A stretch of 64,000 nucleotides of DNA, from the NCBI RefSeq assembly GCF_024298765.1, contig NZ_CP101210.1; one strand, written 5' to 3'. Under the pieces are notes generated by a model, which was not told the origin of the DNA, searched no databases, and worked only from the letters and a program-made list of their open reading frames with translations. Source of the DNA: Escherichia coli. Lineage in GTDB: Bacteria; Pseudomonadota; Gammaproteobacteria; Enterobacterales; Enterobacteriaceae. A program made the translations under genes and the position numbers. Below, one piece after another: positions 3,527 through 62,577 of this stretch; position 1 is the first letter of the stretch; every line of letters begins with the position of its first letter.

Positions 3527-3789
3527 ACATGTATTCCCGGTGAAAAAAGACAAAACCCCGCGCACCGGAAAGGTGGCGGGGGATTCACGGAGATAATATC
3601 TGTCTGAAATTATTTAGAATGCACCTGGTGCACTGCAAAGGAAAGGCAATATTCCGTTCCTCCTCCTTGTCGTGAATACCCCAGGTATCTCACAATGTAC
3701 ACCGACTTACTCCGGGGCTGCCTGAACCACAAGATTGCTGTAGAATTGCCCCCAATGATTCAGGTCCAAACCAGGAAAATGGATTAAAA

Positions 3790-5346: not shown

Positions 5347-6569
5347 GCGAGTTGACTTATCTGGAAAAATTGCTGGATGGGGTTAAGGTTGAGTGGCAAA
5401 CACTAGGGAAAGTGCTTAAACGAACTAAAGGCACAAAAATAACCGCTGGGCAGATGAAAGCTCTTCACAAAGATAATGCGCCGCTTAAAATTTTTGCAGG
5501 AGGGAAAACAGTAGCCTTTGTTGACTTTAAAGATATACCAGAGAAAGATATTAATAGAGAGCCATCGATTATTGTTAAATCCAGAGGTATTATCGAATTC
5601 GAGTATTACGATAAACCATTCTCTCACAAAAATGAGATGTGGTCATATCACTCAAATAATGATGCGATAAGCATAAAGTATATTTATTACTTCCTAAAAA
5701 TAAATGAAGGATATTTCCAGAAAATTGGGGGTAAAATGCAAATGCCACAAATTGCAACTCCTGATACAGATAAGTTTGAAGTTCCAATCCCCTGCCCGGA
5801 TAATCCGGAAAAATCCCTTGCCATCCAGTCTGAAATCGTTCGGATTCTGGATAAGTTTACTGCACTTACCGCTGAGCTTACCGCTGAGCTTAATATGCGT
5901 AAAAAACAATACAACTACTATCGCGACCAGTTACTGAGTTTTGAGGATGGTGAGGTTGAGTGGAAGGCGTTAGGGACTATATGCCAAATTGGCGATGGCA
6001 ATCACTCATCAAAGTATCCTAAGGCGAATGAAATGATTGAGCAGGGGATACCCTTCATTCGTGGTACCAATATGGTGAATGGTACAATATGCAATCAAGA
6101 TATGAAGTACATATCTAAAGAAAAACACAATGAACTAAAAAAGGGGCATTTAAAAGCATTTGATGTTTTGATAGCTAATAGGGGAGAGGTTGGGAAGGTA
6201 GCATATGTTCCAGAGGGATATTCTGGATCTAATTTAAACTCCCAGTTAGCATGGCTTAGAGCCAACCCGGAAATTATCATTAATAGATATTTATTTTTCA
6301 TTCTTTGCTCATCAACCATACAGAATAAACTTTCTGGTGAAGGAGGGGCATTACAACAACTTACTATCAAGAACATAAAAAACATTCAGATACCTGTTCC
6401 ATCAATAACCGTTCAGAGCAATATCGTATCTTTTTTGGACAAGTTCGACTCGTTAACCAACTCAATCAGTGAAGGCTTGCCACGTGAAATCGAGTTGCGC
6501 CAGAAACAATACGAGTACTATCGTGATTTACTGTTCAGTTTCCCAAAACCTGATACTGTCAGTAATTAA
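5343..6569 (+). CDS. hsdS: Type I restriction-modification specificity subunit HsdS, type IC family, two target-recognition domains
   Basis: 408 aa; central conserved region [27 protein letters not shown] and C-terminal repeat [15 protein letters not shown]; the TAEL tandem repeat is the type IC (EcoR124I-family) hallmark. Confidence 0.85.
5868..5891 (+). repeat. 2 x 12-bp in-frame direct repeat (accgctgagctt) encoding TAEL-TAEL in the HsdS central spacer region
   Basis: Read directly in the sequence; in type IC HsdS the TAEL copy number sets the spacer length of the recognition site (EcoR124I vs EcoR124II). Confidence 0.85.
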
Positions 6570-6690
6570 TTGACCATTGCTACCGACCGGGCCACCTTAA
6601 CACCCGGTCTGTATATAGACTATTTTTTACGCGCCGGAAGTCACTCTTAACGCCCTTCCGGCCCTTGCCAGGCGGCACAAAGGATGCGCT

Positions 6691-9600: not shown

Positions 9601-9807
9601 GAAGAAAATCTCAATGAAGAGGCGGCGAAACGCTATATTCGCACATCTTTAAAACGCGAATACGCCACCGAAAATGGCACGGAATTAAACGAGACACTGC
9701 CCAGACTCAGTCCTTTAAATCCGCAATATAAAACGAAAAAACAGACTGTTTTTCAAAAAATTAGCGCATTTATTGAAAAATTTAAGGGGGTGGGTGGAAA
9801 GATTTAG
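6691..9807 (+). CDS. hsdR: Type I restriction endonuclease subunit HsdR (SF2 helicase/nuclease)
   Basis: 1038 aa; helicase motifs TGSGKT and DECHRSQ; RBS aaagga before the ATG; gene order M-S-R as in type IC systems. The TAG stop sits directly against the IS5 end. Confidence 0.9.
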
Positions 9808-11003
<1,196 letters not shown>

Positions 11004-11598
11004 CAAGAGAACGCAACAGCGCACTTGCTTTGCCACAGTTGAATTTTGTGCCGTAACGATGTGCAAGCATGTAAGCATAAGGAGTCAAGGTATAGCGTGT
11101 TACTTAGTTACTCGGATTAACAATCCCAACGTACAGAGCGGCGGATTTACAGAGTCAGCGCAGTCCCTGCTCCGGCAGTCAGTGGCAGGCGGCGTACTGA
11201 AGCAAACCATTATCGATACCGGCATCGGCGATACCATCGGCATGCTGATGTCACACGGCAATATTTCTCCCTACATCATGGCGTGGTTGATAACCGTGCT
11301 GATCCGTCTGGCAACGGGTCAGGGCGTGGTCTCAGCCATGACGGCGGCGGGGATTATTAGCGCAGCAATCCTCGACCCGGCAACCGGTCAACTGGTGGGC
11401 GTCGACCCGGCGTTGCTGGTGCTGGCAACAGCGGCTGGCTCCAACACGCTGACCCATATCAACGATGCTTCGTTCTGGCTGTTCAAAGGCTACTTTGATC
11501 TGTCGGTGAAGGATACGCTGAAAACCTGGGGTCTGCTGGAGCTGGTAAACTCCGTGGTTGGCCTGATAATCGTGTTGATCATCAGCATGATTGCATAA
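11004..11598 (+). pseudogene. C-terminal fragment of a GntP-family (gluconate/H+ symporter-like) permease, 5'-truncated at the IS5 boundary
   Basis: Open frame from the IS5 end to the stop at 11598; C-terminal hydrophobic segments ([35 protein letters not shown]...[17 protein letters not shown]) typical of GntP-family transporters; no start codon or N-terminal half. Confidence 0.55.
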
Positions 11599-11605
11599 CG
11601 TTGAT

Positions 11606-11638
11606 ACCGCTCTGGCCCACAGCGCCAGAGCGGTTTTC
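11606..11638. terminator. Hairpin terminator between the convergent GntP-fragment and ykgG (stem accgctctggc / gccagagcggt, then TTTT)
   Basis: 11-bp perfect inverted repeat with a 7-nt loop followed by a T-run on the + strand, in the 49-bp gap between convergent stop codons. Confidence 0.5.
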
Positions 11639-11647
11639 CATCCTGCC

Positions 11648-12343
11648 TCAACAATCCTCAATAATCAGATATACCGCCTTCACCGGACCATGCACCCCAA
11701 CCACCTTGATAAGCTCAATATCCGCCGTCGAGCTGGGTCCACTGATGATATTAATGCACGATGGCATACGCTCACCGGCCTGTGCTTTCTGATGCAGTTT
11801 TTCTGCCAGCTGCGCCACGCGCGGCAGGATGGTGCTTTTACGCAGCACGAAAATAGAGGACTCCGGCAACAGGCTCAGGGAGCGCCCGCGCTCCGGTGCG
11901 GAAAACAGCACCACGCCGCCGGACTCGGTCAGGCCATATTCGGCATACACCACGCCGACTTTCGCCTGCTCGGCCTGGGTAATATTTTCGCTACCACGCG
12001 CCGGATCCCAGACCACGGCGTTGCATTCCTGCTGCAAGCGTTCGGTGATGCCCAGCTCCACCAGCCGGCTGTCGCCGCTCAGCACCACCGGCTGCTGACC
12101 CAATTCTTCGCACAGGCGCAGTGCCGCGTCTGCGGCCTGGTCCTCGCTGGTCAGTTCGCAGCGGGCCAGCATCACTTCGCTGGCAAACTGGATAAACGCA
12201 GAGCAGCGCTGCTCGGGGCTAAGCTCGGTCAGGCGCTCGTTGGCATAGTTGTTAACCGGTGCGGCATCCGCTTGCGGTTCGAAGCGCAGCGGGCGACCCA
12301 GCGCCTGGGCGATGGTGTTTAAAAACGCGGTACGGTTATCCAT
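11648..12343 (-). CDS. ykgG: Lactate utilisation protein C (LutC/YkgG)
   Basis: Start at the internal Met MDNRTAFLNTIAQALGRP (231 aa), overlapping the ykgF stop by 8 bp; the longer ORF-track start at 12490 is rejected. Confidence 0.8.
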   Translation of the reverse strand: MDNRTAFLNTIAQALGRPLRFEPQADAAPVNNYANERLTELSPEQRCSAFIQFASEVMLARCELTSEDQAADAALRLCEELGQQPVVLSGDSRLVELGITERLQQECNAVVWDPARGSENITQAEQAKVGVVYAEYGLTESGGVVLFSAPERGRSLSLLPESSIFVLRKSTILPRVAQLAEKLHQKAQAGERMPSCINIISGPSSTADIELIKVVGVHGPVKAVYLIIEDC

Positions 12344-13763
12344 TCTTTTTCTCCTGCGCCTGATGTTTCTTAAACCAGCTGCGGAAGCTCTCGCCGTCAG
12401 CATCAGGCAGATCGCGCGCCTCCATCCAGTCACCAATCGCGCCAACCTTGAGCGGGGTTTTGCCGCCATTGAGAAACCAGCTCGCCGCATGCGCGCCCGC
12501 CATCATCCCGACTTTCCACAGCCCCGGATGGCTATTGGCATAGGCGAACATCTTGATCGCCCGTCGCTCGGCTTTCGGCGTAATGCCCTCCTCGGCCATC
12601 ACCCGGCGATGACGCAGGATCAGTTTTGACAACGGAATACGCACCGGGCAGACGCTGTCACAAGCCGTGCACAAAGAACAGGCGTACGGCAGGTCTTTAA
12701 AATCTTTATAGCCGCCGAGCAGCGGAGAAATCACCGCGCCGATAGGGCCGGGATAGATAGAGCCATAGCCGTGCCCGCCGATGTGGCGGTACGCCGGACA
12801 GGTGTTCATACAGGCTCCGCAGCGGATGCAGCGCAGCACATCGCGAAACTCTGAGCCCAGCACCTGCGAGCGACCGTTATCGACAATCACCAGATGGAAC
12901 TCTTCCGGTCCGTCAACGTTGTCCGCCTCACGCGGGCCGGTCAGCCAGGTGTTGTAGCCCGTCAGACGTGCGCCCACGGCGCTGCGCGCCAGCATGGTAA
13001 TCAGCACATCCACCTCGGCAAAGGTCGGCGCGATACGCTCCATGCCCATCACCGCAATGTGCGTTTTCGGTAGCGTGGTGCACATGCGCGCGTTGCCTTC
13101 GTTGGTCACCAGACACACCGAGCCGGTTTCCGCCACGGCAAAGTTACAGCCAGTAATACCGATTTCGGCACTGAGGAAATCCTCGCGGATCTTCTGACGA
13201 ATGAACAAGGTCATAGCTTCCGGGGTTTCCGGGCCGTCGTACCCCAGACGTTCGTTCAGCACGCGGCGGATCTGGTAGCGATCTTTATGAATCGCCGGAA
13301 CCACGACGTGCGAAGGCGGATCCTGATCCAACTGCAGGATATATTCCCCGAGATCGGTTTCGATCACCTGGATTCCGGCATCCTGCAACACATGGTTGAC
13401 GCCGATTTCTTCGGTCACCATCGACTTGGACTTCACCACCTTCTGCGCATTTTTACTCTGCGCGACCTGCAAAATGTAGCGAGTGGCATCTTCTTTGGTT
13501 TTGGCGAAATAGACGTGTCCGCCGTTTTCCGTCACTTTCTCGGAGAGTTGGTACAGGTAAGTGTCGAGGTTGCTCAGAACGTGATCGCGGATCTGGCTGG
13601 CACGATCGCGCCATTCTTCCCAGTGGCCTAACTCATCGACCATTTTTTGCCGATTCGCGCCGATACGCTCCTGCGCATTAGCCACGGCTTTGCGCATAAT
13701 CGGATCTTCTATCTGCTGACGAATACGCAGTTTAAATTCTACATCGCTGGTTTTTATCGACAT
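12336..13763 (-). CDS. ykgF: Lactate utilisation iron-sulfur protein B (LutB/YkgF)
   Basis: 475 aa; two 4Fe-4S ferredoxin-type Cys clusters (CIRCGACMNTCP and CSLCTACDSVCP). Confidence 0.85.
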   Translation of the reverse strand: MSIKTSDVEFKLRIRQQIEDPIMRKAVANAQERIGANRQKMVDELGHWEEWRDRASQIRDHVLSNLDTYLYQLSEKVTENGGHVYFAKTKEDATRYILQVAQSKNAQKVVKSKSMVTEEIGVNHVLQDAGIQVIETDLGEYILQLDQDPPSHVVVPAIHKDRYQIRRVLNERLGYDGPETPEAMTLFIRQKIREDFLSAEIGITGCNFAVAETGSVCLVTNEGNARMCTTLPKTHIAVMGMERIAPTFAEVDVLITMLARSAVGARLTGYNTWLTGPREADNVDGPEEFHLVIVDNGRSQVLGSEFRDVLRCIRCGACMNTCPAYRHIGGHGYGSIYPGPIGAVISPLLGGYKDFKDLPYACSLCTACDSVCPVRIPLSKLILRHRRVMAEEGITPKAERRAIKMFAYANSHPGLWKVGMMAGAHAASWFLNGGKTPLKVGAIGDWMEARDLPDADGESFRSWFKKHQAQEKKNG

Positions 13764-13773
13764 CTCTTTCCCC

Positions 13774-14493
13774 TCAGCGGCTCATCAGCACTTCAGCAAT
13801 ATGCATCACTTTGACCGGCTGGCCTTCCCGTTGCAGTCGACCGCCAATGTTCAGCAGGCAGCTAACGTCTGCGCCAATCAAAAATTCCGGCTTTGCGTCC
13901 ATCAGATGTAATACTTTCTCTTTCACCATCTCACCGGATATCTCGGCCATCTTGACCGAGAACGTCCCGCCAAAGCCGCAACAGGTATCCTGATCGGCAA
14001 ACGTCAACAGCTCCAGTCCGCGCACGTTTTTCAGCAGCGTAAGCGGCTCTTCCTTCACTCCCAGTTTGCGGGTCAGGCTACAGGAAGGATGATACACAGC
14101 GCGGCCCTGCAGGCTGGCACCAACGTCCACCACACCCAGTTTGTTGACGATAAAGGAGGTGAGATCCTGCATACGCGCGGAAACTTTCTCAGCACGCAGC
14201 GCCCATTCCGGTTCATCGGCCAGATACGTCGGGTAGCTTTTAACCGCGTAGGTGCAGGAGCCCGCCGGGGAGATAATCGGATCGTCGTTGTCTTCCAGCG
14301 CGGCGATCAGGTTTTTCATCCCGGGGATCGCCTCTTTGATGTAACCGCTGTTGATGGCTGGCTGACCGCAACACCCTTGCTTCTCGGGGAAATTAACGCG
14401 ACAACCCAGTTTTTCCAGCAGCAATACGGAGTCTCGTGCCATCCGTGATTTCAGTGCGTCACCAATACAGGTGACAAAGAAATTTACATTCAC
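13774..14493 (-). CDS. ykgE: Lactate utilisation protein A (LutA/YkgE), Cys-rich CCG-domain oxidoreductase subunit
   Basis: 239 aa MNVNFFVTCIGDAL...; Cys-rich motifs (CCGQP, CCGFGG). Confidence 0.85.
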   Translation of the reverse strand: MNVNFFVTCIGDALKSRMARDSVLLLEKLGCRVNFPEKQGCCGQPAINSGYIKEAIPGMKNLIAALEDNDDPIISPAGSCTYAVKSYPTYLADEPEWALRAEKVSARMQDLTSFIVNKLGVVDVGASLQGRAVYHPSCSLTRKLGVKEEPLTLLKNVRGLELLTFADQDTCCGFGGTFSVKMAEISGEMVKEKVLHLMDAKPEFLIGADVSCLLNIGGRLQREGQPVKVMHIAEVLMSR

Positions 14494-14567
14494 AATAACT
14501 ACTCCATTGCTTCATTTCTGTTTATTGCGCTTGATATCGCGATATCAAACAAATGTTCATTCGTATT

Positions 14568-16265
14568 TCATGCCCAGTTTTTATGTTTGCTGGTTTTACC
14601 AATACCTGGATTCATAGTGTTGGTCGGATCATTTTCCTGATAAAAACGTGCCAAATTTTCCTGCGCTTTATACAGATGGCCGACATTGTGTTCCGCCGGA
14701 TATTGCGCTCCGCGTTGGCGCAGTAATTCCAGCATCTGTTCTTTTAACGCGTGGGCATCTACGCCTTTTTTAACGATATAATCCTGATGGAATACATGGC
14801 ACATAAAATGGCCGTAATAGAGTTTATGCACCAACTGACTGTCAATTTCCGCCGGTAAATGCTCATACCATTCGGTATCATTGCGGCGTAATGCAATATC
14901 CAGCGCGAGAATATCCTCAACCTCGTCAGAATGAACGGCCTGATAACGAATGGCAGCACCCGCGGCGGCAAAACGATGCAGAAACGCCTTACTGCCCTCT
15001 TCCGCGGTACAGGTAAAGAACGCGCCCTCGGCCGATTTAAAATAGTCCGTTAACCATGCCTGGGCTTCGGCCACACCCTCACCGGACATTTTCAACATCA
15101 GATGGTGTTCATAGTTATCGCGCCAGGTCTTCATCCGCGCCGGGAGATGGCTCGGGAACAGATGGCTAAAAGCCTGCATCGCGCGGTCGGTAAAGTGCGG
15201 GCGAAAGATCTTCACCTTCTCAAGTATGGCCTCGGTACGCCCCTTCAGGTTGAAGAAGAACGGCATTTTGTCCGTGCCAAGTTTGTCGATCATCAGGAAG
15301 GTATCTTTGCTGTATTTCTCTGCAATATCATAGATATCGCGGTGCATATACTCCCCAGCAACCGGCAGGTTTGTAAAATTCGCCAGGATGTGGCGGCGAA
15401 TCTCAGTCAGGACATCAGTCTGATTGGTACCGATATAAAAGACCTGCTGGTTCTTCTCGGCTTCAAAGGTATCCAGACGTACGGCAAACACCGCTAACTT
15501 GCCCGCACAGCCAGAGGATTCAAACAGGCGATCCGGGTCAGCGTTGTAACGTGCTGGCGTGTCGGCATTGATGTCCCGCACGCGGCTAACATAGTCGTGA
15601 TCGTGCGCGTGACGCCCGTCATGGTTGACGAGCACGGCTTCAATCGCATTGTTATCCAGCCGGGCAAGGATTTGCTCTGGCGTCTGACCTAGCTCAATGC
15701 CGAGGTGATTGACCAGCTGCAAGCGTCCCTGTTCATCAATACGGGCAAACAGCGACATCTCGGTATAAGCCGGGCCACGCTGGACCAGAGAACCGCCGGA
15801 GTTATTACAGATACCGCCGATAACCGACGCGCCGATGCACGAAGAGCCAATCACCGAATGCGGCTCACGGCCAAACGGCTTCAGCGCCTTTTCCAGCGAA
15901 TACAGCGTGGTGCCCGGATAAGCCAGCACCTGCTTACCCTCATCCAGCACATGCAGACTGTCCAGCCGCAGCGTGCTGATAATGACGATCTCGCGGTCGT
16001 AATCATTACCATTGGGCGTCGAACCCTCAGTCAGGCCAGTGTTCGACGCCTGCATCAGGATTATTTTATCGGCCTCAACGCAGGCGCTAAGGACTTTCCA
16101 GAGTTCAAGCAAAGAGCCGGGGATAACCACCGCCAGAGCATCACCCTGACCCGAGCGAAAACCCTTACGGTAACGCGCAGTTTTTGACGGTTCGGTGAGG
16201 ATATGAGCAGGGCCAACCAATTGGGTAAGAGTTGTCAAAAAGGTCTTATTATCAGTATGTTTCAT
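14568..16265 (-). CDS. dld: FAD-dependent, quinone-linked D-lactate dehydrogenase (Dld family)
   Basis: ORF 14568..16313; preferred start at MKHTDNKTFL (16265) with ggag about 10 nt upstream; FAD-binding signature GSSCIGASVIGGICNNSGGS; ~565 aa, full length for Dld. Confidence 0.7.
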   Translation of the reverse strand: MKHTDNKTFLTTLTQLVGPAHILTEPSKTARYRKGFRSGQGDALAVVIPGSLLELWKVLSACVEADKIILMQASNTGLTEGSTPNGNDYDREIVIISTLRLDSLHVLDEGKQVLAYPGTTLYSLEKALKPFGREPHSVIGSSCIGASVIGGICNNSGGSLVQRGPAYTEMSLFARIDEQGRLQLVNHLGIELGQTPEQILARLDNNAIEAVLVNHDGRHAHDHDYVSRVRDINADTPARYNADPDRLFESSGCAGKLAVFAVRLDTFEAEKNQQVFYIGTNQTDVLTEIRRHILANFTNLPVAGEYMHRDIYDIAEKYSKDTFLMIDKLGTDKMPFFFNLKGRTEAILEKVKIFRPHFTDRAMQAFSHLFPSHLPARMKTWRDNYEHHLMLKMSGEGVAEAQAWLTDYFKSAEGAFFTCTAEEGSKAFLHRFAAAGAAIRYQAVHSDEVEDILALDIALRRNDTEWYEHLPAEIDSQLVHKLYYGHFMCHVFHQDYIVKKGVDAHALKEQMLELLRQRGAQYPAEHNVGHLYKAQENLARFYQENDPTNTMNPGIGKTSKHKNWA

Positions 16266-18254: not shown

Positions 18255-18511
18255 ACCATTGTCAACCCCGTCAAATTCGCGGCAATCGAATTTGACGACA
18301 TAGTGACCAAAAAGGTTTACACCGCCCCGGGAACGGAACGAGGCAACAGACTTTACGATTTGTCGGCGCTGACTAAAATAGCGCCGATGTTTCAAATCGA
18401 GGATTGTTGTTATGTTGTTCTGGAAAAAGATGGTGAAGAAGTTCGACGCCTTTTCCGGTGATGCTGCCAACTTACTGATTTAGTGTATGATGGTGTTTTT
18501 GAGGTGCTCCA

Positions 18512-18787
18512 GTGGCTTCTGTTTCTATCAGCTGTCCCTCCTGTTCAGCTACTGACGGGGTGGTGCGTAACGGCAAAAGCACCGCCGGACATCAGCGCTA
18601 TCTCTGCTCTCACTGCCGTAAAACATGGCAACTGCAGTTCACTTACACCGCTTCTCAACCCGGTACGCACCAGAAAATCATTGATATGGCCATGAATGGC
18701 GTTGGATGCCGGGCAACCGCCCGCATTATGGGCGTTGGCCTCAACACGATTTTACGTCACTTAAAAAACTCAGGCCGCAGTCGGTAA
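18512..18787 (+). CDS. insA: IS1 InsA (DNA-binding protein / transposition inhibitor)
   Basis: 91 aa with zinc-finger CPSC...CSHC; classic IS1 InsA. Confidence 0.9.
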
Positions 18788-19209
18788 CCTCGCGCATACA
18801 GCCGGGCAGTGACGTCATCGTCTGCGCGGAAATGGACGAACAGTGGGGCTATGTCGGGGCTAAATCGCGCCAGCGCTGGCTGTTTTACGCGTATGACAGG
18901 CTCCGGAAGACGGTTGTTGCGCACGTATTCGGTGAACGCACTATGGCGACGCTGGGGCGTCTTATGAGCCTGCTGTCACCCTTTGACGTGGTGATATGGA
19001 TGACGGATGGCTGGCCGCTGTATGAATCCCGCCTGAAGGGAAAGCTGCACGTAATCAGCAAGCGATATACGCAGCGAATTGAGCGGCATAACCTGAATCT
19101 GAGGCAGCACCTGGCACGGCTGGGACGGAAGTCGCTGTCGTTCTCAAAATCGGTGGAGCTGCATGACAAAGTCATCGGGCATTATCTGAACATAAAACAC
19201 TATCAATAA
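18706..19209 (+). CDS. insB: IS1 InsB (transposase catalytic part, expressed as InsAB' by -1 frameshift)
   Basis: 167-aa ORF overlapping the insA 3' end in the -1 frame. Confidence 0.85.
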
Positions 19210-19688
19210 GTTGGAGTCATTACCAATGGTGGTAACCGTATAGTCCCAAATAAAGATAAAAATGCTTCATTCTTACTCACCATTCCATTTGCTAAGTCTG
19301 TTATTGATGAAATATTGAGTAAAGAAAATCTGTCATGGTGCTCGAAAAATACTTTGCCAATATTGCATGCTTTTAGTATTAGAGCTTTAACCTCCTAATT
19401 GCTGAAGTAATGATACAAGCTACAGTATTGGTGACGAATCTATAGACAAGGAGATAAAAACCAAATATCAGAATTATTTTTGATAGTGCTGGTAAAGAAG
19501 CGGTGTTTGATATCAGCATGTTTATCGGAAAAAAGCTTACCTGGAGCTTTGAAAAATTGCAAAGCAGGGCCTGACAATGAAGGCCCTAATACTGTACTGA
19601 ATGTTAACTCAGTACCAAATTACAAGGAAAAGTATTTTTTCTGGTAAGATTCTGTATACATAATAAATCACCTTATAGTTACAATAGG

Positions 19689-21533: not shown

Positions 21534-23450
<1,917 letters not shown>

Positions 23451-23463
23451 TACCGCAGGAGGC

Positions 23464-24918
23464 ATGATGGAGAGCATTAATAATCAAGTGCAGTCGGTAC
23501 GCCAGTTGCTGGCCATTCCCCAACTGGCCATCCCAAGCTATCAGCGACCTTACCGCTGGGGCTCCAAGAATATCTCGGATCTCTTTACCGATTTGGCAAC
23601 CCATCAGGACAAGAGCGCCTACCGGCTGGGCTCGGTGGTGTTTCATCAGCACACCGATAGTGAGCAGGGCGAAATGCTTGATATCGTCGATGGTCAGCAA
23701 CGCACCCTGACCCTGATGTTGACCGTCAAGGCGCTGATCGAGGTGCTGGATAACGAAAATCGCAGTGGCAAAGAGAAGAGTATCCGGTTTCAACGTCAGG
23801 ATCTGCGTGAGCAATTGCAGGTCTTGCGTGGACCTATCGATGCGTTTATGCAGCGCCAGCGCTTCCCCAGCCGGGATTCGGAGTTCAACCTCAGACGTAA
23901 CTATCTGGAGTTGCGTCGGCTGGTGGCCCGCCCTGAGTTTGACGAGCAGCAAATTGACTTTCTGCTCAACCGCTGTCAGGTGGTCTGCTTTGTACTGCAG
24001 GATATCTCGGAGGCGTTCCAGTTCTTCGATTCGCAAAATGCCCGGGGGCGCGATCTGGCTCCTCACGATCTGCTCAAGGCATTTCACCTGCGCGAGTTTG
24101 CCGGTCATGAGGCCAATCTCAAGGCCGAGGCGGTCGCCCATTGGGAGCGCCTGCCAAGCGACGAGCTGGCCAATCTGTTCGCCCTCTATCTCTATCGGGT
24201 ACGCCAGTGGGCCGAGGGCAAGTCGGCCCGCTACTTTGGCAAGGGGGAGGTGGATCTCTTCAAGGGGGTCAACCTAGATCGGGTAGGGCATTATCCTTAC
24301 GTGGAGTCGCTGCGCATCGCCCACCACTTTGTCGATGAGTACAACAGCCAGTACCAGCGCAAGATTGACGGCCAGTACATGACGTTTCCCTTTCATCTCG
24401 ACCAGATGATCATCAATGGTCGGCGCTTTTTCGAGATGGCCGAGTACTACCAGACGCGGGTGGCCGCCATCGTGGCCGAGGAGTCTGATTCCGGCAAGGC
24501 GCAATCTGCCACCCTGCTCGGCGAAACGCTGACACCGATGGCCAGCAAGGTGCTATCGACCCTGGGCAGCTACGAGCGTCGCCACCGCACCGGGGATCGT
24601 TATGTGCGGGCCATGTTCGACTGCGCCCTGATCTTCTATATCGACAAGTTCGGCAGCCAAGGGCTGTCACTGGCCATCGAGAAGTGCTTTATCTGGGCCT
24701 ATCGCTGCCGCATCCGCCAGCAGGTAGTGCAGTTGGCAACCATGGATAACTATGTGCTGGAGCACAATCTGATCCGTGCCATTCGTGATGCTCGTCTGCC
24801 GGGAGATCTGCACGGCTTCCCTTTGCCTAGCATGAGCAGTCGAGAGAACAAGAACAATCGCAATGGTGCCGAAGATGAGCTGGTCGGGCTGTTTCGGGAG
24901 ATGAAATATTATGAATGA
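23464..24918 (+). CDS. DUF262 (ParB/Srx-like NTPase fold) protein; candidate defence component, GmrS-like
   Basis: 484 aa; DUF262 signature [10 protein letters not shown] ... [13 protein letters not shown] and [18 protein letters not shown]; RBS aggagg before the ATG; 3' end overlaps the next gene by 8 bp. Confidence 0.75.
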
Positions 24919-26953
24919 TGCAGGCGTTCGCCCCTTTTCCATTCGTGCACTGCTTGAAGATCGCGCCCGCTATCTGGTGCCCATGTACCAGCGCAACTAT
25001 GCCTGGGGTGAGGGAGAGATCACCCAGCTGCTGCAGGATGTGCTGGATTATCAGCAAAAATTGGTCAGTGGTAAGGGGCCGCAAACCTACTATATCGGCA
25101 CCCTGGTGGTGTTTGCCCGGGACGATGGCAGTTTCGAGGTAATCGATGGCCAGCAGCGCTTTACTACCCTCTCTCTGCTGGCCAATTGGCTCAAACATCA
25201 CGCGATAGATTCGGTGGATATGAGCTGGTATCAGACCATCAACCTCGCTTTTGAGAGTCGCCCGATATCGAGCCATACCTTCGAGCGCTTATGGCAGGGG
25301 GTTGCCCCCGACGATTTGCGGGGGAGTACCTTCAATGAAGGTTTGGTGAACGGTTTTGAGCTGATTGGCAAGGCAATGGCGGAGCTTGGTTTGGTAGGGG
25401 CTAAACTGACGGCCTTTTGCGACTACCTCTTCAAGCATGTGCAGATCTCTCGTATCGAAGTACCCAAGGATACCGATCTCAATCACTTCTTCGAGGCGAT
25501 GAACAATCGCGGCGAGCAGTTGGAAAAGCATGAAGTGATCAAGGCGCGGCTGATGGAGACGCTGAACCAGATACCCGAGGAAGAGCATCGTCGCCAAAGT
25601 ATTCATATCCTGACCCGGGTATGGGATGCCTGCGCCAATATGGAGCGCTATATCCAGTACGGCTTTACCCCGCAAGAGCGCCACCGTCTGTTTGGTGAGA
25701 GCGACTGGGGTCAGTTTGTGCCCCGTGATTTTGCCCATCTGCTTGATCTGCTAGGATCCCCAAACACGGCCGACGCTGCCGATAAAAGCCGTGCAGCTGC
25801 CGGTAGCCAAGGGCGCACCTTGTTGGCCATTTTGCAGGATGACAAGCTTGATGGTGAGCAGACGGTGGAGGAGGAGAGCGCAGGCTCCGAGCGCTTTAAC
25901 AGCGTCATCAACTTCTCCAACTTCTTGCTCCATGTGCTGCGACTCGTGAGCCGCGACCCGGGTAATACGGAGGGGGTGCCGCTTGATGATAAACAACTGG
26001 TCGATCAGTTTGAGCTGCGAGTGATAAGGCAACCGGATCCAGTAGCGGCAGTTCAGCGTTTTATCTATGGCCTGTTAAAGAGCAAGTATCTGTTTGATCA
26101 GTTCATCATCAAGCGCGAGTTTGCCGATGGCAAGGATAGTTGGAGTCTGAAGCGGCTGCACTGGTATTCGGAAAAGAGCGTCAGTTACATCAATACCTTT
26201 GACAAGGATGAAAATGAGAATGGTTTCTCTGGTGTTAACCGGCGGGTCCTGATGTTGCTGTCGGCGTTTCATGTGTCGACCCCGACCCTGGTTTACAAAC
26301 ATTGGCTGAATGGTGCACTGAGATATCTGTTCGACAATTGTCACCCTGATCAACCGGTGGATGCCGGGGCTTATCTGTCCTATCTGGAGAGTCAGGCTCG
26401 CCGCTTTGTCTTCCAGCGCTTTTTAGCGCCTGGTGAAGGGGCTTCCTATTACCAGATGCTCTACCTTGATAACGCCCTGTTGCCCGCCATCAATGTGGAT
26501 GAGAGTTGGCACAAGGTGATTACATCCAAACTTCGCTTCGGTCATATCGAGAACAACTTTGTCTTCAACTTCCTCGACTATCTGCTGTGGGTACGAGATC
26601 GGAATAGCGACAAAGTTGCTGGCTCCTTTGAGTTCACTTTCCGCAGCTCGGTGGAGCACTTCTCACCCCAGCATCCGATGGATGGCTATAAACCGGTTGA
26701 GCAGAGTGCACTCCATTCGTTTGGCAACCTTTGCCTTATCAGCCACAGCAAGAACTCGCGCTTGAGTAACTTCCAGCCGCAACAGAAGCAGGAGCACTTT
26801 GAAGCAAGCCTTGCCAATAACCAGACTGATAGTCTTAAATTGCTTGCTATGATTCGGCTGATGAAAGATAAAGGTCGTTGGCTGGAAGATGAGATAGCTG
26901 TGCATCAACAAGATATGTTGCAGGTCTTACTATCCAATCAAATTCAGCAATAA
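24911..26953 (+). CDS. DUF262-DUF1524 two-domain protein (GmrSD-like type IV restriction-enzyme architecture: N-terminal NTPase, C-terminal His-Me finger nuclease)
   Basis: 680 aa; N-terminal YQRNYAW ... [11 protein letters not shown] and [17 protein letters not shown] (DUF262); C-terminal [14 protein letters not shown] ... [17 protein letters not shown] (DUF1524-like). Confidence 0.75.
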
Positions 26954-27023
26954 CGGATTGAATCTGTTGGTGATGCTGCCAACTTACTGATTTAGTGTAT
27001 GATGGTGTTTTTGAGGTGCTCCA

Positions 27024-27299
27024 GTGGCTTCTGTTTCTATCAGCTGTCCCTCCTGTTCAGCTACTGACGGGGTGGTGCGTAACGGCAAAAGCACTGCCGG
27101 ACATCAGCGCTATCTCTGCTCTCATTGCCGTAAAACATGGCAACTACAGTTCACTTACACCGCCTCTCAGCCCGGTACGCACCAGAAAATCATTGATATG
27201 GCCATGAATGGCGTTGGATGCCGGGCAACCGCCCGCATTATGGGCGTTGGCCTCAACACGATTTTCCGCCATTTAAAAAACTCAGGCCGCAGTCGGTAA
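27024..27299 (+). CDS. insA: IS1 InsA
   Basis: 91-aa ORF, one substitution (L to F) relative to copy 1. Confidence 0.9.
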
Positions 27300-27721
27300 C
27301 CTCGCGCATACAGCCGGGCAGTGACGTCATCGTCTGCGCTGAAATGGACGAACAGTGGGGCTACGTAGGTGCTAAATCACGTCAGCGCTGGCTGTTTTAC
27401 GCGTATGACAGGATACGGAGGACGGTTGTGGCGCACGTCTTCGGTGAACGCACTCTGGCCACACTGGAGCGTCTTCTGAGCCTGCTGTCGGCCTTTGAGG
27501 TCGTGGTATGGATGACGGATGGCTGGCCGCTTTATGAATCACGCCTGAAGGGAGAACTGCACGTTATCAGCAAGCGATTTACGCAGCGCATTGAGCAGCA
27601 TAACCTGAATCTGAGGCAGCATCTGGCAAGGCTGGGCAGGAAGTCACTGTCGTTCTCAAAATCGGTGGAGCTGCATGACAAAGTCATCGGGCATTATCTG
27701 AACATAAAACACTATCAGTAA
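27218..27721 (+). CDS. insB: IS1 InsB
   Basis: 167-aa ORF overlapping insA. Confidence 0.85.
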
Positions 27722-27736
27722 GTTGGAGTCATTACC

Positions 27737-29173: not shown

Positions 29174-32113
29174 ATGAGTAATTTTAATTTTCTAACAGAC
29201 ATCAGCCCTGAACTCGCTCAATTTGGTAAAAGTGCCGAGCTGTATTACCATGATGATAAGCAGGTAGCACTAGTGAAACTTAGGTGTTTTACTGAAGTAG
29301 TCGTTGGGGAAATTTATTCACGTTTATCGCTAACCCCACCTGTTCGTGATGATTTATATAATCGACTGCGCAGCTACGAATTCAAGGACGTTGTCAGTGA
29401 TAAGGGAATCTGGGCCAAATTAGATGTATTGCGACATAAAGGTAACAAAGCCGCCCACTCTAGCAATGGTTCAGACGAGATTTCCCTCAATGAAACACTC
29501 TGGTTAATCAAAGAAGCTTATTTAGTCGCCCGTTGGTATGCTCAAGCTATTCTCAATAAGCCTATCACTCCGCCAGAGTTTGTTGATCCGGTAAAACCTA
29601 TCGATCATACATCTCGCTTAGAAGCAGAGTTAGAACGGCAACGTCAAGAACTCAATAAACGAGAGGCTGAATTAAAGACCCAGCTTGCTGATAATAGTGA
29701 TAAATATCAACAACAGACGAGTGAGCTAATAGCTCAACTAGACGAAAAAAACGACACACTTTCCAATGTAAAAAAAGAGCAAGCACTATTACAGATTGAA
29801 CTTGAACAAAAACAAAAAGATCTAGTCGCTTCACAACAAGCCTTCTTTGATTACAGGACGCGTGAAGAGTTTAAACAAGCTAGTATTTCATCAGCTTCAA
29901 GCTTTGATCTTGATATGGAAGTGACGCGCCGAAATATTGATATATTTGATTGCTTTGAAGGAGTAAGTTTAACTAAAGGTCAAAACCAAATAGTTAAGCA
30001 AATAAATGAGTTTCTAACCGATACCAAACAAAACGTATTTTTACTTAATGGTTATGCAGGTACAGGTAAAACATTTATAACTAAAGGAATTACTCAGTAC
30101 CTAGAAAGAATTGGTCGTGAATTCGCTATTATGGCCCCGACGGGGAAAGCCGCGAAAGTGATATCAGACAAAACAATGCAACCTGCCAGCACTATTCACC
30201 GCGTGATATACAATTACGACAACGTGAAAGAGTACAAAGTTGACGGTGTGGAAGGGTCTGAAACTTATCGTTGCTATGCTGACCTTAAAGTCAATGTAGA
30301 TACTGCCGAAGCTGTTTATATAATTGATGAAGCGTCAATGGTTTCTGACAGATATTCCGATGGTGAGTTTTTTCGTTTTGGGAGCGGATATTTATTAAAA
30401 GACTTGCTCAAGTACATAAATATTGACCACAACGATCATAATAAGAAAGTTATTTTTATTGGTGATAATGCACAGTTGCCACCTGTTGGAATGAATACGT
30501 CACCAGCGCTAGATGCCAGTTACCTTAAAGAAAATTATCAAGTCGCTGTGGCTTCAGGGCACTTGACTGAAGTTGTTCGTCAAAAAGGTGATAGTGGTGT
30601 TTTGAACAATGCTGCCATGTTGCGTGACGGTTTAGAGCAAAATCTTTTCAATAAACTGAAATTTGAAGTTAATGATCATGATGTATTTAATTTGTCCTCG
30701 GAAAATCTACTTAGCACTTATCTAGACTCATGTGATAGAAAAGTTAGCCGTACAGGAGAAAGTATTATTATTGCTTCTTCAAACCGACAAGTAGCTGAGT
30801 ATAACCGTTTGGTTAGAGAGTACTTCTTTACTGGTCAACAGCAAATGGTCGCGGGAGATAAAGTCATTTCGGTAGCAAATCACTATCGAGCAGACGCTTG
30901 TATTACCAATGGTGAATTTGGAATGATCAAGGAAGTACTATCTCCTCATTCTGAGTTGATTAGTGTTGACATTAGCGTCAAAGGTGACACTGGTGACATG
31001 GTTAAGCGAAAAGTAAATCTGAGTTTTAGGGATGTGATTCTAGGCTTTCGCAACGACTACGGTGAACCATTCTTCTTTGAAGCCAAAATTGTAGAAAACC
31101 TACTTTACAATGATCAGCCGACCTTATCGTCAGATGAGCACAAAGCACTCTATGTTCACTTTTTAAATCGACACCCAGAACTGAGACGTAAAGGTAATGA
31201 ACAAAAGCTTAGAATTGCATTATTGCAAGATCCTTATTTCAATGCTTTTAAACTTAAGTTTGGTTATTCCATTACTGGACACAAAGCACAGGGTAGCGAA
31301 TGGAAAACTGTTTTCTTACAGTGTCAAACACACCAAAAAGCCTTAACTAAAGATTACTTCCGCTGGTTATACACCGCTATAACGAGAACTTCTGGCATCC
31401 TGTATGTAATGAATCCACCTCAGTTGCGCTTAGGAGATGGAATGAAAATAGCAGGAGCGTACCAACCCAAAGCAGTAAACCTAGACAATTCTGCTCCTGA
31501 AGGCGTTGAGGTTGTGCGACCAAGTACCGAAGCAACGAACTCAGTAGCCACAGCGAAGTTTGATTTTCAGACTGACATCCCGCAACTTAAAAAGCTATAC
31601 CAACTTGTTGATGCATGTATTGAAGGTACAGGGATTACTGTAGTGGATGTCCTTCATTATAACTATCAAGATCGTTACATCTTGCAGCGCGGGAATGAGC
31701 AGGCTTCGATAAGTTTCAATTACAAGGGTAACTGGAAAGTGTCTGGCGTAAAGAGCATTACTCAAGATGGGTTCGATGTTGAACTCATGGCTTTGCTTGG
31801 TCAATTAGAAGGTACTTTGCTCGATGTACCTGAGCCTTCAAAGGATACTCAGTTCCATTTTTCAGAGCCATTCTTAGAAGAGTTTTATCTAAATGTAATG
31901 GATCAAATCAACAGTGTTGGAGCTGATATAAGCAAAATTGAATCTCGTTCATTTTGTGAAAGATATGCATTTGTTAAAGGCAATGAGTTGGCGGTAATTG
32001 AGTTTTGGTACAACAAGTCTAGCCAGTTTACTAAAGTTCAACCTATGCCTCAGCTTAGTAATTCCACAAGGCTCATTGACGAAATAATATGTCAAATAGG
32101 TGTGCTTCTATGA
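29174..32113 (+). CDS. Large SF1B (RecD/Pif1/Dda-like) helicase with an uncharacterised N-terminal helical domain and a coiled-coil linker; candidate defence effector/sensor
   Basis: 979 aa. Helicase motifs: Walker A NGYAGTGKTF, IMAPTGKAAKV, Walker B IIDEASMV, motif III VIFIGDNAQLPPV, motif V/VI SITGHKAQGSEWKTVFL. N-terminal ~130 aa contains LDVLRHKGNKAAHS (possible DUF4145/HEPN-like R-x7-H); residues ~140-230 are a heptad-rich E/Q/K/L segment. No relaxase motifs. Confidence 0.75.
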   Translation: MSNFNFLTDISPELAQFGKSAELYYHDDKQVALVKLRCFTEVVVGEIYSRLSLTPPVRDDLYNRLRSYEFKDVVSDKGIWAKLDVLRHKGNKAAHSSNGSDEISLNETLWLIKEAYLVARWYAQAILNKPITPPEFVDPVKPIDHTSRLEAELERQRQELNKREAELKTQLADNSDKYQQQTSELIAQLDEKNDTLSNVKKEQALLQIELEQKQKDLVASQQAFFDYRTREEFKQASISSASSFDLDMEVTRRNIDIFDCFEGVSLTKGQNQIVKQINEFLTDTKQNVFLLNGYAGTGKTFITKGITQYLERIGREFAIMAPTGKAAKVISDKTMQPASTIHRVIYNYDNVKEYKVDGVEGSETYRCYADLKVNVDTAEAVYIIDEASMVSDRYSDGEFFRFGSGYLLKDLLKYINIDHNDHNKKVIFIGDNAQLPPVGMNTSPALDASYLKENYQVAVASGHLTEVVRQKGDSGVLNNAAMLRDGLEQNLFNKLKFEVNDHDVFNLSSENLLSTYLDSCDRKVSRTGESIIIASSNRQVAEYNRLVREYFFTGQQQMVAGDKVISVANHYRADACITNGEFGMIKEVLSPHSELISVDISVKGDTGDMVKRKVNLSFRDVILGFRNDYGEPFFFEAKIVENLLYNDQPTLSSDEHKALYVHFLNRHPELRRKGNEQKLRIALLQDPYFNAFKLKFGYSITGHKAQGSEWKTVFLQCQTHQKALTKDYFRWLYTAITRTSGILYVMNPPQLRLGDGMKIAGAYQPKAVNLDNSAPEGVEVVRPSTEATNSVATAKFDFQTDIPQLKKLYQLVDACIEGTGITVVDVLHYNYQDRYILQRGNEQASISFNYKGNWKVSGVKSITQDGFDVELMALLGQLEGTLLDVPEPSKDTQFHFSEPFLEEFYLNVMDQINSVGADISKIESRSFCERYAFVKGNELAVIEFWYNKSSQFTKVQPMPQLSNSTRLIDEIICQIGVLL

Positions 32114-33534
32114 ATGAGCCAGCTAATCGTACAGTAAATAATTTGAGAAAGAGCGGAGACCTGCAAGGGGCTTGGGAGTTTGGTTTTCAAGCGTTGCAGG
32201 CAGCTCCCCAAGATACTTACTTGAAAGGTGCTTTATTTTGGGTGTGTTATGAGTTTCTTAAGCACCAGCTTGAAAATCTAAATAAGCGAGCGAGTTCTTC
32301 AAACAACTATCGTCCTACTGATTTTGAATTTGAGCAAATAGAGAACTTGCTGCAAACCATAGTAAATTTAGATATTGCTACTGGCGGCCTAGAGTACAAA
32401 ATGCTGCTGGTTCAGTTTAAGAAGAGTTTGGAATGGTTTCCAACCTTGATTCACCTTGTGCTTCGACATCAAACTGTACTATTTGATGATGAGGCTAAAA
32501 CACCTTTTCAAGCTGAAAAAGGTGAAGTGCCAAGTTTGATGCTCTCAACAGCACGCCAAGTGGCGAGTGCATGGCTTAGAGCACGAGAGTATTGGCATCT
32601 AGATCTTAACCAAGTGATGGCATTTATTAACCAAACACGCGAGCAAGCCTCTGACACTAAACATATGATGTGGCTTGATTACGACCAAGCGAAGTGCCTT
32701 GTTGTTGCGGGCCAATACGATCAGGCTCGCGAACTCATTCTACCCATTTTAAGAAAGAAGCAAAAAGAGTCTTGGGCTTGGGGAGCGTTGGCTGCTACTT
32801 ATTCAAAACAAGATCAGCGTTTAGCAATGAAGTTTTTTGCTAGGGGAATAGTATCCGCACATGACGTTACTTTTAGTTTACGTTTATTACAGGGAATTAT
32901 TCCTTTATTACTTGCAAATCAACAGCAAGCTGAAGCCTCAATGTGCCTAAAAACGGCTATTGCGGCTTATCAAGCCCATGGGTGGAAGCTAAAGCAAGAG
33001 CTAGAACAGCTATCTATGCAGGCTTGGTATGATTCTGGTGTCGATGAGAAGCAACTGAGTCCTTTTTTAAACTCTATTTCTCACGACGCTTTAAATTACT
33101 TGCATGGGCCGATGGAGAAGGTTGTTGCTATCGTAGAGAATATCCATAAATCCGGTAAAGGCTTTCAAGTATTCGTAAATAAGTCGACATCACTATCAGT
33201 TCGCATGGGGGTTCATAAAGGTAAGCAGAAACCTCAGGCTGGTGACTATGTCGAGCTATCCGTAGCGAGTGTTGATGGAAACAAAGAAGTAGTAGCTTCC
33301 TCATCGTCCAAGCAAGTAGATATGGCTGATGTTTCGTATGTAGAGGGTACGCTTCGAATAGCACCCAAAGGCTTCGGATTTGTCGAGGATACTTTTGTTC
33401 CTCCCTTTGTTATAGGTAATTTAAAAAATGAAACAAAAGTCAGAGCACTCCGTATCATGAGTTGGGACAAATCTAAAGCTCGCCACAACTGGAAAGCGAT
33501 TAAGTTAACGGAACTAAATTTTAATGAAGACTAA
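32110..33534 (+). CDS. Uncharacterised protein with N-terminal TPR-like helical repeats and C-terminal cold-shock/OB-fold-like region, translationally coupled to the helicase
   Basis: Start at MNEPANRT (ATG 32110, overlapping the helicase stop; ORF-track start 32089 rejected); C-terminal ...GTLRIAPKGFGFVEDTFVPPFVI resembles the GFGF cold-shock/S1 motif. Confidence 0.65.
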   Translation: MNEPANRTVNNLRKSGDLQGAWEFGFQALQAAPQDTYLKGALFWVCYEFLKHQLENLNKRASSSNNYRPTDFEFEQIENLLQTIVNLDIATGGLEYKMLLVQFKKSLEWFPTLIHLVLRHQTVLFDDEAKTPFQAEKGEVPSLMLSTARQVASAWLRAREYWHLDLNQVMAFINQTREQASDTKHMMWLDYDQAKCLVVAGQYDQARELILPILRKKQKESWAWGALAATYSKQDQRLAMKFFARGIVSAHDVTFSLRLLQGIIPLLLANQQQAEASMCLKTAIAAYQAHGWKLKQELEQLSMQAWYDSGVDEKQLSPFLNSISHDALNYLHGPMEKVVAIVENIHKSGKGFQVFVNKSTSLSVRMGVHKGKQKPQAGDYVELSVASVDGNKEVVASSSSKQVDMADVSYVEGTLRIAPKGFGFVEDTFVPPFVIGNLKNETKVRALRIMSWDKSKARHNWKAIKLTELNFNED

Positions 33535-42300: not shown

Positions 42301-42376
42301 TGGTGCCGATAATAGGAGTCGAACCTACGACCTTCGCATTACGAATGCGCTGCTCTACCAACTGAGCTATATCGGC
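42301..42376 (-). tRNA. thrW: tRNA-Thr (anticodon CGU)
   Basis: Reverse complement gccgatatagctcagttggtagagcagcgcattcgtaatgcgaaggtcgtaggttcgactcctattatcggcacca: cloverleaf with anticodon loop attCGTaat, T-loop ggttcgactcc, encoded CCA. Confidence 0.95.
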
Positions 42377-52020: not shown

Positions 52021-52209
52021 GTACCATTCCATTTATGAATAAAAATCAGGAAATGGCAGACGAATCCAGGGCAAGAAAAAAGAATTAATCCTGGAAAGGT
52101 CTGCAAAGAGTCATTGATAAAGGATTTGTCATGATTTACCTCCTTGCAGTTTGTGGAATAAGAAAACGCGCACATACTAGACGGGCGTTATTTTCATTGC
52201 AAGCTGGAT

Positions 52210-53714: not shown

Positions 53715-53784
53715 TGCTCACCTCTCAACACTGGTAAAGTATACAGTAATTTCAGGGGTTGAGAAATGCGTAAAGATTCAGCAT

Positions 53785-54500: not shown

Positions 54501-54544
54501 GCAGCGCGGCGATAATGCTTTCACGCTCGGATTTACTGACGCTG

Positions 54545-56254: not shown

Positions 56255-56257
56255 GCA

Positions 56258-59068: not shown

Positions 59069-59134
59069 GGGTAACCTCCACAACAGCGGGAGCGCATGGC
59101 CCCCGGCGAAGATTGATTTAAGAATTTTCAGGTC

Positions 59135-59265: not shown

Positions 59266-59272
59266 GCCAGAC

Positions 59273-62535: not shown

Positions 62536-62577
62536 TTGAATAACGGAGCCGAAAGGCTCCGTTTCTTTATCCGCTAA

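Follow-up and report, generated by a model that had tools for sequence, protein, structure and literature searches.

The closest described systems are two-protein restriction enzymes that have been treated in two separate literatures, as TgvAB in Vibrio cholerae and as GmrSD_ECOR17 in Escherichia coli, and that appear to make up one family. TgvAB of V. cholerae VPI-2 (VC1767/VC1766; Vizzarro et al. 2024, PMC11411939; Gomez & Waters 2024, 10.1101/2024.04.05.588314) consists of a DUF262-only protein, TgvA, and a DUF262-DUF1524 protein, TgvB, whose genes overlap by 8 bp. Function depends on both proteins, on the DGQQR motif in each of them and on the H...N pair of the TgvB nuclease, H571 and N602 (PMC11411939). 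GmrSD_ECOR17, made up of GmrS1 and GmrSD2 (clusters CLS_003 and CLS_004), was described by Silas et al. 2025 (Nat Commun 16:7828, PMC12373910), who do not mention TgvAB. At leaky expression it restricts T2, T6 and T4 lacking ip2/ip3, and T4 with glucosyl-hmC is restricted whereas T4 with hmC or unmodified C is not (PMC12373910). Both genes are needed, as GmrS1 or GmrSD2 alone gives no protection; truncations of GmrS1 abolish defence and the E582A/H583A nuclease mutant of GmrSD2 is dead (PMC12373910). The injected T4 protein Ip3 is a specific inhibitor, and induction of both genes is toxic (PMC12373910). Wild ECOR17 became sensitised when transposons inserted into GmrSD2 (PMC12373910), and the system must therefore be natively expressed in that strain.

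A further two-protein GmrSD-like system, GrwAB, is found in WASA-lineage V. cholerae (PMC12137116). As far as it is summarised in PMC12409362, both proteins contain DUF262 and one contains DUF1524, the nuclease domain is carried by GrwA, the C-terminus of GrwB is long and multi-domain and is said to differ from that of TgvA, and phages with 7-deazaguanine modifications are also targeted. The other relatives, namely single-chain GmrSD (Eco94GmrSD, GmrSD_CT596), BrxU, SspE and DndI, act as single proteins (homodimers) with the arrangement DUF262, linker and DUF1524, including the DGQQR and His-Me motifs. Modified DNA is the target of GmrSD proper; SspE and DndI sense phosphorothioate, and BrxU can also cleave T4 DNA that is hypomodified. 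Different T4 proteins serve as inhibitors, Ip1 for GmrSD_CT596, Ip2 for BrxU and Ip3 for GmrSD_ECOR17.

The window analysed here, 64 000 nucleotides of an E. coli chromosome (RefSeq contig NZ_CP101210.1), contains a pair of adjacent, co-oriented genes in which a DUF262-only gene comes first and a DUF262-DUF1524 gene second (Table 1). Both ORFs are uninterrupted, together spanning 3.5 kb, and their lengths and domain E-values are far beyond chance. In RefSeq and in the ECOR17 annotation the first gene starts one codon further downstream, at 23467, giving a protein of 483 aa. The geometry of the 8 bp overlap is that of predicted translational coupling.

Table 1. Features of the gene pair and its surroundings (positions in the 64 000-nucleotide window)
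Feature	Position	Strand	Remarks
Left IS1	18457-19224	+	Brackets the segment; direct orientation with right copy
Type I R-M remnant	21790-22917	+	Frameshifted C-terminal part of hsdM and first ~290 nt of hsdS; annotated as pseudogene/fragment
IS3-family 3' end fragment	22918-23450	+	Abuts ORF1
Shine-Dalgarno-like AGGAGG 5' of ORF1	23457-23462	+	1 nt from ATG at 23464, 4 nt from ATG at 23467
ORF1, gmrS1/tgvA-like gene	23464..24918	+	484 aa; DUF262 (ParB-like NTPase) and DUF7834, no nuclease domain
ORF1/ORF2 overlap, ATGAATGA	24911-24918	+	8 bp; ORF2 ATG at 24911, ORF1 TGA at 24916-24918
ORF2, gmrSD2/tgvB-like gene	24911..26953	+	680 aa; DUF262 NTPase, long linker, DUF1524 His-Me finger nuclease
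Right IS1	26969-27736	+	Left inverted repeat 16 nt past ORF2 stop

Comparison with the ECOR17 system, using the sequences in Supplementary Data 5 of Silas et al. and covering both proteins and the gene order, revealed near identity. Residues 2-484 of ORF1 were identical to GmrS1 (APT18_07330) at all 483 positions (100%), and ORF2 matched GmrSD2 (APT18_07335) at 676 of 680 (99.4%). The four substitutions, D134Y, E158D, R348C and N352D (window residue, position, ECOR17 residue), lie outside the catalytic motifs, both pairs share one gene order, and E582 and H583, the residues mutated by Silas et al., are present in ORF2. The match is at the level of the allele, and nothing found here contradicts the assignment. 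The pair very probably encodes GmrSD_ECOR17, a modification-dependent (type IV) restriction enzyme of two proteins that belongs to the TgvAB family. A GmrSD-like type IV restriction system with an extra DUF262 partner, as the preliminary description had proposed, is what the near-identical pair tested in ECOR17 represents. The literature already covers the system, the phages that it targets and the inhibitor that phage T4 encodes, and the experiments suggested at that stage, challenge with T4 carrying glucosyl-hmC, hmC or unmodified C and removal of the first gene, have been reported for the ECOR17 pair (PMC12373910).

The relationship to the V. cholerae prototype is more distant. ORF1 shared 25% identity with TgvA over residues 21-420 (E 1e-21) and ORF2 shared 23% identity with TgvB over about 400 aa (E 2e-21), in both cases against the first 399 aa of the Vibrio protein. 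At 23-25% identity, membership of the TgvAB family is a statement at the level of a distant family only. The architecture agrees throughout, with a DUF262 and DUF7834 protein followed, across an 8 bp overlap, by a DUF262-linker-DUF1524 protein, both of them required. The targets, T-even phages with glucosylated hmC, and an association with type I R-M are also shared, and the hits to the TgvAB model in Table S5 of PMC11411939 include near-identical proteins from E. coli, Klebsiella and Enterobacter. Sensitivity to Ip3, in contrast, has been demonstrated for the E. coli system only. The pair in the window is not embedded between hsdS and hsdR of an intact operon, but has hsdM/hsdS remnants upstream and IS1 downstream, and the pair in a Klebsiella plasmid likewise lies after hsdR-sprT rather than between hsdS and hsdR. 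The V. parahaemolyticus homologue is embedded in a type I R-M operon. However, 1,341 tgvAB loci have been reported against 79 five-gene clusters (PMC11411939), indicating that embedding is not a requirement for the family.

Standard annotation leaves this system unnamed, although about 5% of complete E. coli genomes and hundreds of Klebsiella plasmids carry it. RefSeq calls both proteins 'DUF262 domain-containing protein', a search of NCBIfam found no family for either ORF, and the 2023 PADLOC models gave only partial matches to the N-terminal parts (HEC-06, Orf5 and SspE, about 100 of roughly 560-770 model positions) and no full-length named match. HEC-06, a single GmrSD-like protein of about 560 aa, was rejected because the best stretches cover approximately residues 1-110 of either ORF. 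Taken alone, the generic labels and missing matches would suit a new two-gene defence system, a fused GmrSD with an additional NTPase partner and no counterpart in the literature, and the preliminary description had concluded that the pair fitted no system it could name, unless it proved to be a two-gene system named previously. It has been named twice, the allele as GmrS1/GmrSD2 and the architecture as TgvAB, and with the allele itself characterised and near-identical proteins among the published TgvAB hits there is next to no likelihood that the system is new.

The domain content was examined using Pfam. ORF1 contains GmrSD_N/DUF262 (residues 21-208, 4e-28) and DUF7834 (residues 220-465, 1.4e-76), and ORF2 contains GmrSD_N (residues 12-215, 4.6e-29) and GmrSD_C/DUF1524 (residues 555-671, 4.4e-11). 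Motifs of the QR, DGQQR and FxxxN types were found in both, as YQR26, DGQQR76 and FFDSQN188 in ORF1 and YQR26, DGQQR79 and FFEAMN194 in ORF2, which also has E582-H583 (EHFSP) and N615/N620, with H583 and N615 forming the His-Me H...N motif. The profiles and motifs agree with the preliminary description of the 680-aa protein as a DUF262 protein with DGQQR and a DUF1524 His-Me nuclease, and its 8 bp overlap with the gene for a 484-aa DUF262 protein was also correct. The latter had been described as DUF262-only with a C-terminus that could not be assigned; it does contain DUF262 and no nuclease, but its C-terminus is DUF7834. TgvA of V. cholerae likewise scores for GmrSD_N and DUF7834. We found no paper in a literature search for 'DUF7834', and the Pfam entry can be read as the C-terminal domain of TgvA and GmrS1.

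By hhalign, the DUF262 domains of ORF1 and ORF2 are paralogues (probability 99.5%, E 1e-22). As the ORFs overlap and each begins with a DUF262 domain, a frameshift might be supposed to have divided a single ancestral GmrSD gene into the two. Each ORF, however, has a complete DUF262 domain with all three motifs, where a single GmrSD has one, and DUF7834 did not resemble the linker of ORF2 in a profile comparison (hhalign probability 0.1%, from shallow alignments that leave room for remote kinship). The same two-gene arrangement with an 8 bp overlap recurs in Vibrio, Cupriavidus and Gluconobacter, and published loci that show it number more than 1,300; the pairing and the ATGNNTGA overlap are kept in the homologues from V. 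parahaemolyticus, Cupriavidus and Gluconobacter, one of them in the order hsdM-hsdS-A-B-hsdR. A split gene, which the preliminary description had named as a possible refutation, is therefore a most improbable origin. The conservation of the two-gene arrangement, together with the published lack of protection by GmrSD2 alone, also led us to reject a classical single-chain GmrSD or BrxU. GrwAB was rejected because the leading gene of the present pair is the DUF262-only one and its product ends in a single DUF7834 shared with TgvA, as judged against what PMC12409362 reports of GrwB.

Among solved structures, SspE and DndI come closest both in sequence and in fold, and the SspE models of PADLOC match the N-terminal part of the proteins, which could point to a phosphorothioate-sensing enzyme of the SspE/DndI type or a BREX-associated one of the BrxU type rather than one specific for sugar-modified hmC. 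The sequence likeness of the pair to GmrSD, BrxU, SspE and DndI is nonetheless confined to DUF262, and for GmrSD_CT596 and BrxU it is limited to the DGQQR region. A sequence search of the PDB returned no match for ORF1 and only DUF262-level matches for ORF2, to an unnamed 818-aa DUF262 protein, DndI (9jfl) and SspE. An AlphaFold2 model of ORF1 built on a 24-sequence alignment was weak (mean pLDDT 64.8, residues 182-326 below 50), and Foldseek with this model retrieved SspE and DndI at a TM of ~0.3 and no informative match for the C-terminal domain. No ssp, dnd or BREX genes were found among the annotated features of the island, and membership of the SspE/DndI group was rejected on the N-terminal-only matches and the absence of ssp and dnd genes from those features. 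Only glucosyl-hmC T4 was restricted in the published substrate test, unlike the situation for BrxU, and in contrast to all of these single proteins the second DUF262 protein is obligatory here. We regard a specificity of the SspE, DndI or BrxU kind as extremely unlikely.

For the enzyme of the GmrSD_ECOR17 type, the 8 bp overlap would couple translation and keep GmrS1 and GmrSD2 in balance. BrxU and SspE are homodimers regulated by nucleotides, and by analogy the paralogous DUF262 NTPase domains of the two proteins may act as a sensor and switch in hetero-oligomeric form; a physical complex of GmrS1 and GmrSD2 is proposed. The switch would license the DUF1524 nuclease of GmrSD2, such that DNA with sugar-modified hmC may be cut soon after injection. 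DUF7834 shows no detectable likeness to the GmrSD2 linker and is poorly modelled by AlphaFold, and we tentatively suggest, as a rather speculative role, that it could be the reader of sugar-modified hmC or the receiver of Ip3. If so, sensor and nuclease would be split between two proteins in this family, which would then not be a regulated copy of a single-chain GmrSD. It is less of a possibility that sensitivity to Ip3 is altered by the four ORF2 substitutions.

A stretch of ~3.7 kb that is nearly identical in sequence occurs in 253 of the 5,426 complete E. coli genomes and on at least 370 plasmids. The island adjoins tRNA-Thr/proA in the E. coli chromosome, and the surroundings noted in the preliminary description, degraded hsdM and hsdS, an IS3-family end and two bracketing IS1 copies, were all found. 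The R-M remnant is 97.6% identical to the type I R-M system of a Klebsiella plasmid (positions 3084-4216 of the plasmid record), and it and the gene pair belong to the same Klebsiella-plasmid island. Upstream of the pair in the plasmid lie hsdR-sprT and IS debris, and the left inverted repeat of the right IS1 sits where the plasmid continues to the hhe gene. The pair is cargo of a decayed defence island of the Klebsiella-plasmid type, from which most of hsdS together with yecA, hsdR and sprT appear to have been deleted and in which IS1 appears to have replaced hhe.

In such an IS-riddled island the genes may be intact but silent, passenger debris severed from the promoter that served the type I R-M operon behind which they formerly lay. 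Only truncated copies of hsdM and hsdS lie upstream, the IS3 end directly precedes ORF1, and no convincing sigma-70 promoter was found upstream, the sole match being a -35 TTGACC at 23439 whose -10 overlaps the start codon; toxicity on induction would also favour low or no expression. Against this, both ORFs have remained uninterrupted and ORF1 is identical to a functional allele that is natively expressed in ECOR17 itself and for which leaky expression sufficed for defence. Most of the E. coli hits have part of an IS3-family transposase annotated within the matching region, and the same IS3 end lies directly 5' of the pair in Klebsiella plasmids. Silence of the genes is on balance unlikely, though less so than the other alternatives to a functional enzyme of the GmrSD_ECOR17 type. 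The last ~102 bp of the IS3 end is duplicated; Tandem Repeats Finder did not detect this 102 bp duplication, and a repeat search placed the two copies at 23246-23349 and 23348-23450, the copy nearest ORF1 being the one that is also present directly 5' of the pair in the Klebsiella plasmid.

ORF1 and ORF2, the gmrS1/tgvA-like and gmrSD2/tgvB-like genes of the pair, form a system that is already known and has been characterised by experiment. Silas et al. 2025 described a 'distinct Type IV RE' in E. coli ECOR17 for which two GmrS-like genes are needed (PMC12373910). When GmrS1 and GmrSD2 were rebuilt from the Supplementary Data 5 alignments of that study, GmrS1 was identical to residues 2-484 of ORF1 (483/483) and GmrSD2 matched ORF2 at 676 of 680 positions, with differences at positions 134, 158, 348 and 352. 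Judged by sequence, this match is conclusive as to the identity of the pair. The pair also resembles TgvAB from VPI-2 of V. cholerae, in which TgvA (VC1767) carries DUF262 only, TgvB (VC1766) carries DUF262 and DUF1524, and the genes overlap by 8 bp. Both are required for activity against T2, T4 and T6, which is directed at glucosylated hmC (PMC11411939). In alignments with the N-terminal 399 aa of VC1767 and of VC1766, ORF1 residues 21-420 were 25% identical to VC1767 (E 1e-21), and ORF2 was 23% identical to VC1766 across approximately 400 residues (E 2e-21). Near-identical proteins from E. coli, Klebsiella pneumoniae plasmids and Enterobacter kobei are present in Table S5 of Vizzarro et al., which holds MacSyFinder matches to the TgvAB model (PMC11411939). 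The preliminary description was right in its functional intuition, given the ECOR17 match and the TgvAB architecture; its claim that the pair fits no nameable system is refuted on its own terms, by a previously named two-gene system.

TgvAB and the ECOR17 system are one family under two names in two literatures, and the name TgvAB does not occur in the text of Silas et al. 2025 (PMC12373910). No system name for the pair was obtained from full-length PADLOC matches, NCBIfam or RefSeq annotation. What remains of value is bookkeeping, namely uniting the two literatures where current annotation resources leave the system unnamed.

The ORFs, their overlap and their DUF262 and DUF1524 domains were as first described, and that account of the pair was accurate. 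Within the 8-bp overlap, ATGAATGA, ORF2 starts with the ATG at 24911 and ORF1 stops with the TGA at 24916-24918. A second ATG in ORF1, at 23467, is the start used in the RefSeq and ECOR17 annotations, giving 483 aa. The only promoter-like match before ORF1 overlaps its start codon.

Features of the gene pair and its surroundings in the window
Feature	Position	Strand or orientation	Remark
ORF1	23464..24918	+	484 aa
ORF2	24911..26953	+	680 aa
AGGAGG	23457-23462		1 nt before first ORF1 ATG, 4 nt before second ATG
hsdM C-terminal part and hsdS start	21790-22917		97.6% identical to PittNDM01 plasmid p2
Bracketing IS1 copies	18457-19224, 26969-27736	direct	94.4% identical, 43 mismatches
IS3-family end, tandem copies	23246-23349, 23348-23450		last ~102 bp; few mismatches
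AAA/RecD-like ATPase and TPR protein genes	29174-33531	+	979 aa and 474 aa, overlapping
Second hsdM-hsdS-hsdR operon	~3790-9807	-	mapped from NZ_ABACVG020000001.1 3619165-3625182
tRNA-Thr	~42301-42376		beside proA

In Pfam, ORF1 contains GmrSD_N/DUF262 (residues 21-208, 4e-28) and DUF7834 (residues 220-465, 1.4e-76), and ORF2 contains GmrSD_N (residues 12-215) and GmrSD_C/DUF1524 (residues 555-671). ORF1 had been described as DUF262-only with an unassignable C-terminal region; it is otherwise DUF262-only, but this region is now DUF7834. As VC1767 itself scores for DUF7834 (7e-38) as well as GmrSD_N, DUF7834 is the TgvA-type C-terminal domain. YQR, DGQQR and FxxxN motifs were found in both ORFs, and the His-Me region of ORF2 includes E582-H583 (EHFSP) and N615/N620. 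The DUF262 domains of ORF1 and ORF2 are clearly paralogous (hhalign probability 99.5%, E 1e-22). Profile-profile comparison detected no similarity between DUF7834, which is poorly modelled by AlphaFold, and the ORF2 linker, and GmrS1 is thus more than a nuclease-less copy of GmrSD2. The possibility that ORF1 is a fragment of an ancestral single gene, raised in the preliminary description, was examined, and a frameshift split is excluded because neither ORF lacks any part of the DUF262 domain and because several phyla share the two-gene form.

Other assignments were also rejected. The best PADLOC names (HEC-06, Orf5 and SspE) reflected matches confined to the N-terminal ~100 residues, and HEC-06 is a single-protein system, unlike the pair. 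GrwAB differs in its partner protein and in having the nuclease domain on GrwA (PMC12409362). SspE and DndI are phosphorothioate sensors, and the features annotated in the island include no ssp or dnd genes.

Of the ECOR17 pair, neither GmrS1 nor GmrSD2 protects singly, even when overexpressed. Leaky expression of both restricts T2, T6 and T4 lacking ip2/ip3, and they are toxic when both are induced (PMC12373910). Defence is lost on truncation of GmrS1 or in an E582A/H583A double mutant; T4 is restricted only when it carries glucosyl-hmC, hmC or unmodified-C T4 being spared, and restriction is relieved by T4 Ip3, not by Ip1 or Ip2 (PMC12373910). In V. cholerae, TgvA needs its DGQQR motif, and TgvB needs DGQQR as well as H571 and N602 (PMC11411939). 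By analogy with the nucleotide-regulated homodimers of BrxU and SspE, the two proteins probably form a GmrS1-GmrSD2 hetero-oligomer that detects modified DNA and releases the DUF1524 nuclease. The 8-bp ATGNNTGA overlap, also present in V. parahaemolyticus, Cupriavidus and Gluconobacter homologues, probably couples translation of the two genes and balances their products.

Of 5,426 complete E. coli genomes, 253 carry a near-identical copy of the 3.7-kb segment, which also occurs on at least 370 plasmids, for the most part IncFIB/FII plasmids of K. pneumoniae. The clusters of the two proteins, CLS_003 and CLS_004, are within the twenty commonest DUF262 clusters of Enterobacteria (PMC12373910). 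The order in K. pneumoniae PittNDM01 plasmid p2 is hsdM-hsdS-yecA-hsdR-sprT, an IS1 fragment, the IS3 end, the gene pair and hhe. On Klebsiella plasmids, the hsdM-hsdS-yecA-hsdR-sprT cluster before the pair is intact, and the pair is followed by hhe, a 1,911-aa DUF4011 anti-phage gene (14506-20241 in the p2 locus); neither survives in the chromosomal copy of E. coli. In V. parahaemolyticus (3342-15225 in locus L005), the arrangement is hsdM-hsdS-A-B-hsdR-sprT-like, with a type IV enzyme of the Mrr family ahead of it, and the A protein is 64% identical to ORF1, indicating that the ORF1 lineage is also truly embedded in type I R-M. The TgvB-like gene of Cupriavidus basilensis (9424-11474 in locus L006) was called as two ORFs of 518 aa (DUF262) and 165 aa (DUF1524) overlapping by 4 bp (ATGA). 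The split, which recurs in an independent Logan assembly (L007), reflects either a frameshift or a variant that naturally has three genes.

The window is E. coli chromosome, positions 1-39000 being ~99.97% identical to strain 2020CK-00188, and the pair lies in an IS-rich island adjoining tRNA-Thr and proA; this tRNA probably marks the island boundary. The degraded hsdM/hsdS and IS3 end before the pair and the IS1 on either side were all confirmed. The interval matching 4217-10499 of the p2 locus is missing, the IS3 end, also found before the pair in Klebsiella plasmids, is kept with an extra 102-bp duplication, and IS1 begins 16 nt past the ORF2 stop codon, at the expected position of hhe. Where the two IS3-end copies differ, the one beside ORF1 agrees with the Klebsiella plasmid, unlike the other; this duplication (23246-23450) was missed by Tandem Repeats Finder. 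No target-site duplication flanks the IS1 pair or either single copy. As the direct copies also differ by 43 mismatches, the bracket looks, from its sequence, like a product of recombination and of IS-mediated rearrangement or deletion, rather than a recent composite-transposon insertion.

Immediately past the right IS1 and stbA, the ATPase and TPR proteins are full-length matches to the PADLOC candidate defence system PDC-M16 (PDC-M16A, E=0; PDC-M16B, 1.7e-251), and their RefSeq labels go no further than 'AAA family ATPase' and 'tetratricopeptide repeat protein'. The second type I R-M operon, apparently intact, lies in the same island ~14 kb upstream and is separate from the degraded hsdM/hsdS beside the pair. 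Beyond dinB (52039-64000), identity to the reference strain drops from ~98% to ~93%, and in the matching region that strain carries a lateral-flagella cluster (Flag-2: lafA, lafU, motA).
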